Origin: Escherichia phage vB_EcoM-ZQ3
Sequence record: MW630116.1
Length of the DNA stretch: 64,000 nucleotides
Direction: 5' to 3' (one strand)
Part shown: piece after piece, positions 31,836-42,179 of the stretch
How the letters are laid out: each line of letters starts with the position of its first letter
Position numbering within the stretch: the first letter of the stretch is position 1
Position numbers and translations under genes: made by a program
Notes under the pieces: model-generated
What the model was told of the DNA's origin: nothing
Database searches by the model: none
The model's input: the letters and a program-made list of their open reading frames with translations, nothing else

Positions 31836-31854
31836 GGATAATAAAGGAGTTAAC

Positions 31855-32277
31855 ATGCGAAACCAAAATAATGATATTGACTCAATGTTCGAAGAGTTCC
31901 GAAATAAGGTAAATCCACCTACGTCTTTAGTTGATTCATTACGATATGTTGCAACTGGACGTAAATGGTACTGGTCGTCTTCTTATGAGACAACTGAATA
32001 TGCAAATAACCGAAAATCTTTATTAGCCCCAGGTATTATGATTCATGATATCGGAGCTATTGCTAAACTAGTTGCGGACCATGATATTAGATTCACTGAT
32101 TTCGTTGCTCCTACGTGGTCTGTTTGTTGTTTAAACACTGAATGGGACTATATCAGTGAACGCTCTGAAGATTATTATGGTTTTAGAGATAAGCTCTTAA
32201 GGTCTAACATGTTTTATATCGATACTGAAGTTCTAGTCGATAATAAAATATTACTTTACGTTAATCGTCGATTCTGA
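31855..32277 (+). CDS. Hypothetical protein
   Basis: 140 aa from ATG after AGGAG. Confidence 0.5.
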   Translation: MRNQNNDIDSMFEEFRNKVNPPTSLVDSLRYVATGRKWYWSSSYETTEYANNRKSLLAPGIMIHDIGAIAKLVADHDIRFTDFVAPTWSVCCLNTEWDYISERSEDYYGFRDKLLRSNMFYIDTEVLVDNKILLYVNRRF

Positions 32278-37740: not shown

Positions 37741-37764
37741 TACCTCCTATAAACGTGGGAGGTA
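37741..37764 (+). promoter_or_regulatory. Hairpin spanning the RBS of gene e with an internal late-promoter-like element
   Basis: TACCTCC-tataaacgtg-GGAGGTA; right arm is the e SD; loop holds TATAAACG (6/8 to TATAAATA); matches the arrangement described for T4 gene e. Confidence 0.5.
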
Positions 37765-37766
37765 TT

Positions 37767-38255
37767 ATGAATATATTTGAAATGCTTCGTAATGACGAAG
37801 GTCTTAGACTGACTTTATACAAAGACACCGAAGGCTTTTGGACGATTGGCATAGGCCATTTAGTAACAAAGAACCCGTCTTTAGCCGTAGCTAAAGCTGA
37901 ACTTGACAGAATGATCGGTCGTAAATGCAACGGTACAATTACCCTTGATGAGGCTGAAAAGCTATTTAATGAAGACGTTGATAAAGCCGTTCGCGGAATC
38001 TTGGGTAATGCTAAACTTAAACCGGTATATGATTCTTTAGATGCAGTTCGTCGATGTGCATTGGTCAATATGGTCTTCCAAATGGGTGTAGCAGGCGTCG
38101 CAGGTTTTACTAATTCTCTTCGTATGCTTCAACAGAAACGTTGGGATGAAGCGGCAGTAAATCTAGCCCAATCTAAATGGTATCGTCAGACACCTAATCG
38201 CGCGAAACGCGTAATCTCAACATTTAAAACAGGAACTTGGAAAGCGTATATATGA
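37767..38255 (+). CDS. e: Endolysin (T4 lysozyme, gene e)
   Basis: 162 aa; [32 protein letters not shown]... near-identical to T4 lysozyme. Confidence 0.95.
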
Positions 38256-38533
38256 AAACATATAGTGAATTTTTATCAGAATCTATTCTTAACGAAGCTA
38301 CTGACACATTTGCAACTAAGCTAGGTGCAGCTTTGGTTGAAGCTGAAAGTCTATTAGCACGTATTTCTGAACTTGCTAGTAAGATAGATACTCGCAAATT
38401 TGAGCGCACCAGTGATATCGTTAAGCTTGAAGCCTTGTTGCGTATGTGTGATAAACCGGAAGAAATCGCTAAGAACGGCTCGCTGATGAAACAACGTCTT
38501 GAAAAATATATTTCAGGCGCTTCAGAAAAATAG
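38252..38533 (+). CDS. Internal-protein-like gene with capsid-targeting sequence [10 protein letters not shown]
   Basis: 93 aa; ATGA overlap with the e stop; position of ipIII/ipII in T4. Confidence 0.6.
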
Positions 38534-38591
38534 TGTTTACTTCCTCCAAGGGTTTTGATACTATACATTCATCAACTACTTGGAGGAAATT

Positions 38592-39005
38592 ATGACTCGT
38601 ATCAATTTAACACTTGTTTCTGAACTGACCGACCAACATCTTATGGCTGAGTATCGTGAATTACCACGCGTATTTGGTGCAGTCCGTAAACATGTTCAAA
38701 ACGGTAAACGTGTAAAGGATTTTAAAATCTCCCCGACATTTATCTTAGGCACAGGTCATGTAACATTCTTTTACGACAAACTCGAATTTTTACGTTTACG
38801 TCAAATCGAGCTAATCGCTGAATGCTTGAAACGTGGTTTCAAAATCAAGGACACGACTGTCCAAGATATTTCCGACATCCCTGCCGAATTTCGTAATAAT
38901 TATGTCCCGTCCGAAGCGTCCATTGCGATAAGTCAAGCACGCTTAGACGAAAAAATTGCTCAACGTCCTACTTGGTACAAATACTATGGTAAATCAATTT
39001 ACTAA
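38592..39005 (+). CDS. denV: Endonuclease V, pyrimidine-dimer DNA glycosylase (denV)
   Basis: 137 aa; [35 protein letters not shown]... near-identical to T4 endonuclease V. Confidence 0.95.
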
Positions 39006-39096
39006 GGAAAAAGGTTGCGATGGTAAAGCTTAAACAGTTTACGCTTAAGTATTAATATGGTATAATTACTCTATCAAAACAAACAAGGAAACAAAA

Positions 39097-39399
39097 ATGA
39101 AAACATATCAAGAATTTATTACTGAAGCGCGAGTGAGTGCAGGTAAATTAGAAGCCGCTATAAATAAAAAGGCCCATTCATTTCACGATTTGTCCGATAA
39201 AGACCGTAAGAAACTTGTAAGCCTTTATATTGACAAAGAGCGTATTCTCGCTCTTCCTGGCGCTAATGAAGGTAAACAGGCCAAGCCTTTGAATGCTGTT
39301 GAAAAGAAAATTGATAACTTTGCTTCTAAATTCGGTATGTCTATGGATGACCTTCAGCAAGCGGCTATCGAAGCAGCTAAAGTAATTAAAGGTAAATAA
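39097..39399 (+). CDS. Internal-protein-like gene with capsid-targeting sequence MKTYQEFITE
   Basis: 100 aa; canonical capsid-targeting peptide; promoter cassette upstream. Confidence 0.6.
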   Translation: MKTYQEFITEARVSAGKLEAAINKKAHSFHDLSDKDRKKLVSLYIDKERILALPGANEGKQAKPLNAVEKKIDNFASKFGMSMDDLQQAAIEAAKVIKGK

Positions 39400-39671
39400 C
39401 AGTTTACTTTCTCCTAGAATTGTGATAGTATAATCATAATTACTTGGAGAGGTAAAATGACTCGATGAAAAAATTTTAATGAAGCCACACTGGTATAAGT
39501 ATTAAGGCAAAAATATTTACATTCAAATAACATGGGAACAAGCTGGACCTCATGATTCTATGAGGGATTCCCGCCAACCTGTAATAAGGTCGAGCCCAAG
39601 TGCGGTAATGGGTAAATACAGAAATGGACAATTCATGTGCCATGGAATGGCCCAAACTTAGAGAGAACAAA

Positions 39672-40211
39672 ATGAAAACATTTTTAACTGGACCTTATCT
39701 ATCCCTGATGAATGCTTTTACACACCATTCTGATGCTAGAGTAGAAGAAATTTGTAAGAACGGTTATGTCCCACCATTTGAAGACATACTCAAGCAGTAC
39801 TGTACACTTCGTTTAGACGGTGGCAGACAATCAGGTAAATCCACTGCAGTAACTAATTTTGCTGCTAATTGGCTGCACGACGATGGAACAGTTATTGTTC
39901 TTTCTAATACTTCAGCTTATGCTAAAATTTCTGCTGGCAACATTAAAAAAGAATTTTCTCGTTATTCTAGCGATGATATTCGATTCCGTTTATTTACTGA
40001 TTCTGTCCGTAGTTTTATTGGCAATGAAGGTTCTAAATTCCGTGGATTAACGCTTTCTCGTATTCTATACATAATTGACGAGCCTATTAAAGCTCCTGAT
40101 ATGGATAAGATTTACAATGTCCATATTAAATCAGTACAGCACTGCTGCAAAAGCAAATATTGCATAGGCGGTACTGCTCGTCCTCAATTTTTTGTGATTG
40201 GAATGCAATGA
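39672..40211 (+). CDS. Predicted P-loop NTPase
   Basis: Walker A GGRQSGKST and Walker-B-like LYIIDEP; 179 aa. Confidence 0.55.
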   Translation: MKTFLTGPYLSLMNAFTHHSDARVEEICKNGYVPPFEDILKQYCTLRLDGGRQSGKSTAVTNFAANWLHDDGTVIVLSNTSAYAKISAGNIKKEFSRYSSDDIRFRLFTDSVRSFIGNEGSKFRGLTLSRILYIIDEPIKAPDMDKIYNVHIKSVQHCCKSKYCIGGTARPQFFVIGMQ

Positions 40212-41720: not shown

Positions 41721-42179
41721 ATGACTATCAATTCAGACGTTTTTATCCGCCGCAATAAACTCCGTCGAATCTTTGAAACGGAGTTCCGCAAAATAAATGC
41801 CAGTATAAAAGATGCTGCAAAGTCTCTTGGACTACCAGGCTTTCATATCAAGTATTCTCAACATCTCTTAGATCGTGCCATCCAGAGAGAAATAGATGAG
41901 AACTACGTTTTTGAATTATTTCGTAAAGTAAAAAATCATGTTAAAGAAGTTGCAGAATTTTTATCAATGCCGGCACGTCCGGATGTTGATGAAGATTTTG
42001 TCGAAGGCGTCGAATATCGCCCAGGCCGTTTAGAAATAACTGATGGAAATCTTTGGTTAGGACTTACAGTTTGTCGCGAAAATCCAGCATTCAAAATGAA
42101 GACTCTTCAATGCAGAATGGCTATTATTAACAGTAAACGACTACCAGGAAAAGCTTCTAAAGCAGTGATTAAAATCTAG
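41721..42179 (+). CDS. regB: RegB endoribonuclease
   Basis: 152 aa; matches T4 RegB as recalled; promoter cassette upstream. Confidence 0.8.
   Translation: MTINSDVFIRRNKLRRIFETEFRKINASIKDAAKSLGLPGFHIKYSQHLLDRAIQREIDENYVFELFRKVKNHVKEVAEFLSMPARPDVDEDFVEGVEYRPGRLEITDGNLWLGLTVCRENPAFKMKTLQCRMAIINSKRLPGKASKAVIKI

Follow-up and report, generated by a model that had tools for sequence, protein, structure and literature searches.

A denV deletion scar joined to a probable conserved structured RNA element upstream of vs.8 in a T4-type coliphage

Results

A composite locus in front of vs.8

We analysed positions 39400–39671 of a 64,000-nucleotide stretch of Escherichia phage vB_EcoM-ZQ3 (MW630116.1), the whole of which is referred to as the window. 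The region is probably a composite, in which the scar of a deleted denV gene is joined to an older, independently conserved structured RNA element. Judged from its alignment with relatives, the first part (39400–39523) is a gene-deletion scar, consisting of a promoter cassette together with both ends of a second, divergent denV. The second part (39543–39654) is, on the evidence of sequence conservation and base pairing, a structured RNA-like element that is conserved independently of the scar. All features lie on the + strand unless otherwise stated.

The window phage is T4-type, and the closest database genomes are ECCR664 and HX01, the latter a Mosigvirus. On the + strand the gene order is lysozyme e (37755–38255), an internal-protein-like ORF, denV, an ipII-like internal protein gene (39097..39399, with the capsid-targeting leader MKTYQEF...), the region 39400–39671, and homologues of vs.8, vs.7 and vs.6/GrcA, with regB further on at 41721. 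The upstream denV (38592..39005) is an intact, T4-like gene of 138 codons with a Pfam Pyr_excise match (E = 3e-14) and 91% amino acid identity to T4 denV; on this basis it is taken to be the functional copy, which renders the downstream copy redundant. The first gene after the region begins at 39672: this is the vs.8 homologue (39672..40211, 179 aa), which has a weak P-loop match and starts at the equivalent of T4 vs.8 Met41. The window has three tRNA genes, 11 kb upstream of the region. Gene content from e to vs.8 varied among the genomes compared (HX01, BYEP01, N2, RPN187, AV117, UGKSEcP1 and T4), and the ipII-like gene was found directly 5′ of the cassette in all scar-state relatives and in some intact-state relatives.

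Deletion of a second denV gene

An earlier note, made from the sequence of the window alone, had suggested that the region might be the scar of a deleted gene and that alignment with relatives would reveal what occupies the slot. This proved to be so: in UGKSEcP1 (Tequatrovirus) an intact 183-codon denV, with vs.8 after it, stands behind the same ipII-like gene and promoter, so that the denV lies between the promoter and 3′ sequence found in the window. When aligned to UGKSEcP1, the window retains the first 8 nt and the last ∼200 nt of the long denV, the 347 nt between them are missing, and the distance between common anchors falls from 526 nt to 179 nt. The deletion junction lies in a 6-nt direct repeat, GACTCG (39459..39464). 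The 5′ copy of the repeat is ATGACTCGTAT and the 3′ copy is ACGACTCGATGAAAAA; the latter is still visible in TB004, which retains GACTCGATGAAAAA at the 3′ repeat, while UGKSEcP1 has GACTCT there.

At the junction, ATGACTCG runs directly into the final ∼60 nt of denV, which are in a different frame. As 347 is not a multiple of three, the reading frame from the denV start is closed at once, giving the three-codon ORF ATG ACT CGA TGA (M-T-R-stop; 39457..39468), of which the first 8 nt are the start of denV and the stop results from the frameshifting deletion. The immediate stop reported in the earlier note is thus accounted for. The 3′ remnant of denV (LDEKILMKPHWYKY*GKNIY, residues ∼118–137; 39461..39520) is out of frame with the ATG and was recovered by tblastn with E ∼9e-5. 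A secondary TAC>TAA change at 39503–39505 is present in the window, HX01, SF and N2 and absent from BYEP01, RPN187 and AV117; since only some of the scar-bearing phages carry this change, it postdates the deletion.

The scar junction is common to 17 records (15 phages). In approximately 270 further records the match is confined to the sequence 3′ of the junction and, in the rows listed, lies under a CDS annotated as endonuclease V. TB004 carries a separate 187-nt deletion in the same long denV allele, which from the aligned sequences is independent of the 347-nt deletion in the window. A complete short denV lies 0.4–1.3 kb upstream of the scar in 7 of 7 scar-state genomes (the window, HX01, BYEP01, SF, N2, RPN187 and AV117); as every scar-state genome examined has this full gene, the copy that was lost was redundant. 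In UGKSEcP1, the one genome with an intact long denV that was examined, there is no other denV copy in the locus. Because only three codons are read from the ATG and the missing 347 nt include the whole Pyr_excise region, what is left of the second denV is a pseudogene remnant. The scar explains both the orphan promoter and the three-codon ORF.

We propose that the ancestor had the order ipII-like gene, early promoter/stem-loop cassette, 183-codon denV and vs.8, an arrangement that persists in many Tequatrovirus genomes, and that this block would have been located downstream of another, T4-like denV. The redundant copy shed 347 nt between the GACTCG repeats, probably by slipped-strand or short-homology recombination, and the frameshift leaves the strong ribosome site serving M-T-R-stop alone. 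The surviving promoter presumably starts a transcript that crosses the remnant and the element and continues into vs.8 and beyond; we infer that it still fires and now feeds vs.8.

The promoter cassette

The stop codon of the upstream gene (TAA, 39397–99) is followed by a denV-type early promoter (39403..39431) made up of TTTACT (39403–08), a 17-nt spacer and TAGTAT (39426–31), with a TGn motif (TGa) before the −10. A Shine-Dalgarno sequence, GGAGAGG (39446–52), precedes the ATG at 39457. The GTTTAC and TATAAT strings to which attention had been drawn earlier are at 39402–39407 and 39429–34, respectively; the literal TATAAT is probably unused as a −10, because 20 nt separate it from the −35 hexamer. 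The likeness to a denV promoter that had been noticed was borne out, as the cassette is identical at 53/71 positions to the window's own denV cassette, at 54/74 to that of T4 and at 63/68 to the UGKSEcP1 promoter that serves the intact long denV. The cassette is predicted to fold into a stem-loop (39400..39459; the PeSL stem-loop discussed below) in which the −35 region pairs with the Shine-Dalgarno region (−21.2 kcal/mol, z = −5.0, with 0/200 shuffles equally stable). The window's own denV cassette adopts the same fold (z = −3.9).

It is unlikely that this promoter and the distal sequence together form a dedicated small-RNA gene. The arrangement in the window does invite that reading, with the promoter ∼100 nt before the element and nothing between them beyond the three-codon ORF. 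However, the promoter is orthologous to that of denV, and a whole denV intervenes in T4, UGKSEcP1 and ∼270 other genomes; it was the deletion in the window lineage that brought the element to ∼100 nt behind the promoter. Elsewhere, the gaps that hold the element in S16 and KPV15 had, by reading, no obvious promoter, and a scan of magaca found no promoter in the ∼150 nt before the element. In Ivi, the closest promoter-like site upstream (1331–1360) is cut off from the element by a hairpin and T-run, read as a terminator, and in the window no terminator follows the element. The suggestion in the earlier note of a promoter driving a non-coding RNA therefore holds in part: the distal ∼110 nt are RNA-like, but there is no dedicated unit, the promoter being that of denV.

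Distribution and conservation of the distal element

The T4-like version of the element occupies ∼39543–39654, as delimited by conservation and pairing, and a covariance model found one copy in the window (72.9 bits). A blastn search with 39515–39672 matched 1117 phage records. The central block alone was matched at 77–84% identity in T4-like genera of Klebsiella, Salmonella, Yersinia and Enterobacter phages, a 43-nt core was matched at 91–95% in rV5-like phages, and a shorter, 32-nt core at 94% in the 45-kb phage Ivi. Most of the core matches beyond close relatives fall in unannotated gaps. Pattern scans of viral and metagenome contigs also gave ∼46-kb phages, a 70-kb contig and further T4-like variants. 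Two metagenome matches (L043 and L058) were judged to be chance hits in GC-rich coding DNA without P3 (see below), and were left out.

Several T4-like genera, rV5-like phages and ∼45-kb phages share the core ACCTGTnnnAAGGTCGAGCCnAAGnGCGGTAA with hardly any change. When 30 distinct sequences from six lineages were aligned, 25 columns of the core ACCTG(T)nnnAAGGTCGAG(C)CnAAGnGCGGTAA were invariant, and the bracketed positions were conserved in at least 90% of sequences. Among 41 distinct T4-like sequences, 27/42 core columns are invariant, compared to 1/100 in the first 100 nt of vs.8. No match was obtained when two patterns for the exact core were run against 185,579 bacterial genomes; there is thus no host or prophage counterpart at exact-match stringency.

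In seven non-T4 loci (magaca, L024, L026, L027, L028, L031 and L033), the element is 0.2–0.7 kb from a tRNA cluster and on the same strand. ARAGORN found no tRNA in the 3-kb locus of Ivi. In T4-like phages, the element is ∼10 kb from the tRNA cluster and almost always before vs.8; in KPV15 it is before an internal-protein gene. We also noted that the structural genes beside the element in L027 are on the opposite strand.

These comparisons make it very improbable that all 270 nt are a decaying remnant and leader without a function of its own, seemingly conserved through kinship or recent exchange alone. The flanks (the ipII-like gene, the promoter and vs.8) are indeed also 95–97% identical between the window and Tequatrovirus relatives, and the element is not thermodynamically special: its stability (z = −0.5 in the window, −1.6 to +1.2 elsewhere) is unremarkable and, as evidence for structure, not significant. 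Nevertheless, genera and unrelated phage groups with flanks beyond any alignment have essentially the same core, its conservation far exceeds that of the adjacent coding sequence, and the helices still pair despite changes on both sides (below). On this sequence evidence, the notion of a mere scar is already largely refuted, and the composite of a scar and an older RNA element is the reading that we carry forward.

Secondary structure of the element

In our model of the element, P1 is a hairpin of variable sequence, P2 a short helix that closes the core and P3 an invariant hairpin; an 18-nt strand with almost no variation completes the layout. The element would be read on the + strand within early transcripts. 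P1 (CCTCATG/TATGAGG; 39548..39565) contains the CCTCAT/ATGAGG arms (39548–53/39560–65) singled out in the earlier note; the hairpin is there, as part of the element, with z = −0.5 when taken alone. A hairpin is present at the P1 position, 0–7 nt upstream, in every lineage, with ∼10 different arm sequences. Within the T4 type, L052 has the compensatory variant CCTTATG/TATAAGG, and BYEP01 has a wobble variant.

P2 (39573..39613) pairs 39573–76 with 39609 and 39611–13, leaving G39610 bulged, and encloses P3 and the invariant strand. In alignment A4, pair 7–40 was AU21/UA5/UG3/GC1 and pair 6–42 was CG19/UA6/GC4/GU1, both with no unpaired cases; pair 5–43 was CG24/GC5 with one unpaired, and pair 4–44 was GU10/AU9/UA4/GC1 with six unpaired. 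The covariation score for P2 was 0.36 compared to 0.095 for shuffles, of which 0/500 reached 0.36, and slid controls gave ≤0.12. P3 (ACCT-GTAATA-AGGT; 39577..39590) has an invariant stem and a variable, GTRRNA-like loop. An A-U to G-C double change, giving GCCT/AGGC, occurs in the diverged, tandem second copy in L030 (a Karamvirus-like contig), which supports P3. The strand that follows (CGAGCCCAAGTGCGGTAA; 39591..39608) is nearly invariant, with 15/18 columns invariant and one more at ≥90% over the 30 distinct sequences from six lineages. Further 3′, the hairpin GCCAT-GGA-ATGGC (39639..39651) is conserved in T4-like genera, where GCC/GGC is kept and there is little covariation.

For the family of 46-kb phages, a four-helix model (an outer helix P0 with P1, P2 and P3) gave 99.4% of cells paired, compared to 30–44% for slid controls, with compensatory changes in P0, P1 and P2. 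In some lineages, the outer helix P0 creates a three-way junction. Compensatory changes mostly separate lineages, and the count of independent events is therefore modest (∼6). A type-A outer helix, pairing the denV end with the sequence after P2, was also considered; the two sides are complementary in the window and do not co-change among relatives, and this helix was rejected.

P3 and the 18-nt strand show zero variation in the main alignment. The predicted inner fold with P3 and a single strand, and a mutually exclusive inner fold proposed by RNAalifold on the same invariant bases, would fit equally well, and a riboswitch-like switch between the two is possible. Run lineage by lineage, RNAalifold gave inconsistent folds. 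Its alternative outer register for P2 was rejected, having 8 and 6 broken cells where the adopted register has 1 and 0.

The presence of G-U pairs makes the structure strand-specific, on the + strand. We therefore give very little credence to the idea that the core acts as DNA, such as a site for protein binding or recombination: a protein might bind the invariant 31-nt block and the region is a recombination hot spot, but the compensatory changes in P0, P1 and P2, the many G-U pairs (which become C-A on the opposite strand) and an orientation that is consistently co-linear with flanking transcripts and tRNAs all argue for RNA.

Coding potential

The distal sequence has been annotated in three ways. 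In T4, the equivalent of 39560–39661 forms the opening 33 codons of vs.8, which has 219 codons in all. The denV of UGKSEcP1-type genomes has 45 extra codons, of which this stretch makes up the final 34 and the remaining 11 are upstream of 39560. In the window, it is an orphan ORF, ended by a TAG and a frame change. That one stretch of DNA should belong to three different proteins calls its coding status into question. The earlier note had seen no credible ORF here; there is in fact a 33-codon ORF (39560..39661), identical to T4 vs.8 residues 1–33, which we judge to be an annotation artefact over the RNA element, so that the view of the sequence as non-coding is upheld.

A protein-coding role seems extremely doubtful, whether the stretch is taken to begin vs.8, to lengthen denV at its C-terminus, to encode a separate 33-aa peptide or to carry a 64-aa minus-strand ORF. 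Frames are open at 39560–39661 (+) and 39476–39670 (−), and two of the differences between the window and T4 within the + ORF are synonymous. Against this, the variable sites are spread evenly over the three codon positions, both in the 33-codon ORF (8/8/10) and, by hand count, in the minus frame (10/8/8), compared to 7/8/18 in the vs.8 core. The ATG of the ORF coincides with the 3′ arm of P1 and has no Shine-Dalgarno sequence before it at 39560; L021, L054 and every B/C-type phage lack this ATG. The T4 frame is closed or without a start in L021, L054 and the B, C, D, E and F types, and in B-type phages a stop closes the frame on either strand no more than 12 codons from the core. As for a minus-strand protein, the long open minus frames fall in different frames across lineages, with the core frame closed in B-type phages, and this candidate was rejected. 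We therefore judge from the sequence comparisons that the distal stretch is non-coding and that the N-terminus of T4 vs.8 and the C-terminal extension of denV are probably mis-annotations. The element also lies within the denV frame in ∼270 genomes and within the annotated vs.8 frame in T4; were either frame translated across it, ribosomes would unfold the element.

Resemblance to tRNA and searches for known RNA families

The 18-nt segment that the earlier note had likened to the T-arm and acceptor 3′ half of tRNA-Asn(GUU) is at 39588–39605, where it forms part of the element and overlaps the nearly invariant strand, and it does match that tRNA of the window at 14/15 positions. This level of match was reached by 19/2000 dinucleotide shuffles, and an unrelated 15/15 match to the same tRNA is found at 31841–31855, so the resemblance is probably due to chance. 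The T-arm reading found no support: ARAGORN found no tRNA in the region or at the element in four homologous loci (L010–L013), the Rfam tRNA model gave no match at E ≤ 10 in 38900–40000, and the T-stem cannot form, as the TAAGG 5′ of TCGAGCC pairs with CCAAG by GG:CC only and those Gs are used in P3. Therefore, although the element matches tRNA-Asn and accompanies tRNA clusters in other phage groups, a degenerate tRNA or tRNA-derived fragment is scarcely credible, given also that the T-stem 5′ half is absent, that the match is weaker in T4 and in CCA-AAG variants and that a chance match at least as good occurs elsewhere in the window.

With Rfam 15, the best matches in the region had E ≥ 1.6, far below gathering scores, and there were none at the element in eight other loci. 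The riboswitch and ribozyme models showed no resemblance in the region or in those eight loci; a riboswitch or ribozyme is a formal possibility. Literature searches on RNA features of vs.8 and denV, on strings of the core sequence and on structured RNAs of T4 and rV5 found nothing relevant. A catalogue of ∼10,000 unnamed phage RNA candidates exists (PMC10690425), and the element may already be listed in large collections of this kind.

Discussion

The scar is in itself ordinary. It is a tidy case of a T4-type hyperplastic region losing a redundant gene, and both the cassette and the denV pseudogene are of known kinds. The interest lies rather in the conserved element, which outdoes the surrounding genes in conservation, is found in more than 1000 phage genomes, crosses phage families and is absent from Rfam. 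Even the annotation of T4, the most thoroughly studied phage, treats it as protein.

We put forward, tentatively and short of conviction, that the ∼75–130-nt element (core ACCUGUnnnAAGGUCGAGCCnAAGnGCGGUAA in the P1/P2/P3 fold) represents an undescribed class of functional structured RNA that is shared horizontally by unrelated lytic coliphages (T4-like phages including T4 itself, rV5-like phages and ∼45-kb phages), accompanies tRNA clusters in the non-T4 groups and has been hidden as pieces of vs.8 and denV. Its target would be a host factor, on which it might act as a decoy or as a processing module tied to tRNA biology or anti-phage defence. An RNA-binding protein or RNase, of the host or of the phage, would most likely recognise the folded module; the outcome might be a stable small RNA, or control over how tRNA-cluster and early transcripts are processed. 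A trans-acting decoy against a host function would be the most interesting version of such a mechanism. If the element is a functional RNA, the start of vs.8 and the length of denV would need to be corrected in hundreds of records, T4 biology would gain a new RNA, and there would be a directly testable candidate for acting on a host function linked to tRNA clusters.

Comparison with known systems

The promoter cassette is, by its sequence features, a PeSL-type element and thus of an already known kind. PeSL cassettes of T4-type phages (Arbiol et al. 2010, PMC2839356; Comeau et al. 2014, PMC4122927) comprise a stop codon, an early promoter, a stem-loop over the −10, and a Shine-Dalgarno sequence with an ATG, and are found in hyperplastic regions. 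The scar cassette has each of these parts, the stop codon being that of the upstream gene and the early promoter being of T4 type, and lies in a hyperplastic region where gene order differs among close relatives. Its promoter agrees with 11/12 specified positions of the PST/T4-type PeSL early promoter consensus, TTTACW-N17-TAYWAT (Comeau et al. 2014, PMC4122927), the −10 being TAGTAT, with a G where the consensus has Y. The scar also differs in that the deletion took place between two 6-nt repeats within a gene rather than between two PeSLs, and in that the cassette no longer serves any gene of its own.

In read-through transcripts, the −35 region of the scar cassette would pair with the Shine-Dalgarno sequence, and transcripts from the cassette's own promoter would be without the 5′ arm of the hairpin. 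In both respects it is like the hairpins that reportedly sequester the ribosome sites of T4 genes such as e, in work attributed to McPheeters et al. of 1986. Unlike those hairpins, that of the scar guards only a three-codon ORF, and any such control would be vestigial.

The scar is homologous to denV over its first 8 nt and last ∼60 nt and stands at the orthologous slot. It differs from a denV gene by the loss of ∼83% of the core gene, by its broken frame and by the additional nonsense codon. The allele from which it came is the 183-codon form of denV, whose 45 extra codons are, in our reading, the RNA element read as protein.

The element is like the T4 RNAs rnaC and rnaD (species 1 and 2) in being a structured non-coding phage RNA, as we read it, of unassigned role and co-oriented with tRNA clusters. 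It differs from them in lacking homology of sequence or structure; with covariance model R1 and filters off, the best score over T4 68000–75000 was 10.1 bits, at neither rnaC nor rnaD. GOLLD, ROOL and drum are structured phage RNAs, likewise of unassigned role, that are adjacent to tRNA genes. It is in kind only that the element resembles such tRNA-adjacent orphan phage RNAs.

Gene annotations overlapping the RNA element

The conserved RNA element, a structured RNA-like element comprising helices P1, P2 and P3 and a near-invariant 18-nt strand, underlies residues 1–40 of vs.8 in T4, where the reference annotation gives this protein a length of 219 aa. The region concerned lies at L004 3794–3913 (about 64,793–64,912 of T4 NC_000866; minus strand), with its window counterpart at 39560–39661, and coding conservation is absent there. 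Met41 (MRTFLTGPYL) is therefore probably the true start of vs.8 in T4.

The frame given to vs.8 in T4 is also the frame in which a C-terminal extension of denV passes through the element. This longer denV, of 183 aa, is found in many Tequatrovirus genomes (UGKSEcP1, L002 2578–3129, and about 270 records), and its 45 additional C-terminal residues are the product of predicted read-through into the RNA element. In Shigella phage TB004, the same denV allele carries an internal deletion of 187 nt at an AATGG microhomology (L040 2527–2750), which is an independent event. No second denV was present in TB004 within 2.5 kb to either side of the deleted copy; TB004 may therefore be without a functional denV, or else the record may contain an assembly error.

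Second copies and alternative pairing

In two Karamvirus-like contigs, a diverged second tandem copy of the RNA element is placed between the first copy and vs.8 (L032 9135–9188, 32.6 bits; L030 5084–5137, minus strand, 22.2 bits). The invariant strand is changed in these second copies, and one of them has a compensatory change in P3.

A possible alternative pairing was noted in the 46-kb-phage family, one of the non-T4 groups that carry the element. Here the sequence ACUAACC, which supplies the 5′ strands of both P2 and P3, is perfectly complementary to GGUUAGU located 35 nt downstream (loci L024, L026, L027, L031, L033, L045, L048 and L061, taking the element ±60 nt). The resulting helix was not observed in the other lineages of the RNA element. 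As it is mutually exclusive with P2 and P3, it may act as a conformational switch in this family.

Transcription context

In phage Ivi, the RNA element is flanked by a hairpin with a T-run on one side and by a promoter-like TTGACA-17 site on the other (L013 ∼1395–1425 and 1553–1581). Read by eye, the hairpin and T-run form a putative intrinsic terminator; the terminator scan listed no terminator in Ivi. The element of magaca is followed, after ∼65 nt, by a promoter close to consensus (L010 1621–1649). These flanking sites suggest that, in both phages, a transcription unit may have the element at its 3′ end.

Neighbouring genes and cassettes

The lysozyme gene overlaps at its end with an ORF that has an internal-protein-type leader (window 38237–38533; L001 1386–1654); in the HX01 RefSeq record, a pair of short CDSs annotated ‘internal head protein’ takes the place of this ORF. 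Phage SF has an additional 393-nt gene (L036 2678–3070) between the scar/element region and vs.8, and its record had two matching places in the nearest-genome search. Window 31841–31855 matches the reverse complement of the tRNA-Asn anticodon arm (ATAAAGGAGTTAACA) at 15/15 positions; this match, which looks like a ribosome-binding region, served solely as a yardstick for chance tRNA-Asn matches. Separately, among the database hits, 18 records titled ‘Campylobacter phage’ (e.g. MG065676.1; A116, 59.5 kb, unannotated) contain rV5-like coliphage sequence at 97% identity, and are probably mislabelled or contaminated.

Both denV-type cassettes in the window (38533–38596, z = −3.9; 39400–39462, z = −5.0) fold with the −35 region paired to the Shine-Dalgarno sequence. 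In read-through transcripts, the predicted fold would conceal the ribosome site; in transcripts begun at the cassette's own promoter, the site would be exposed.
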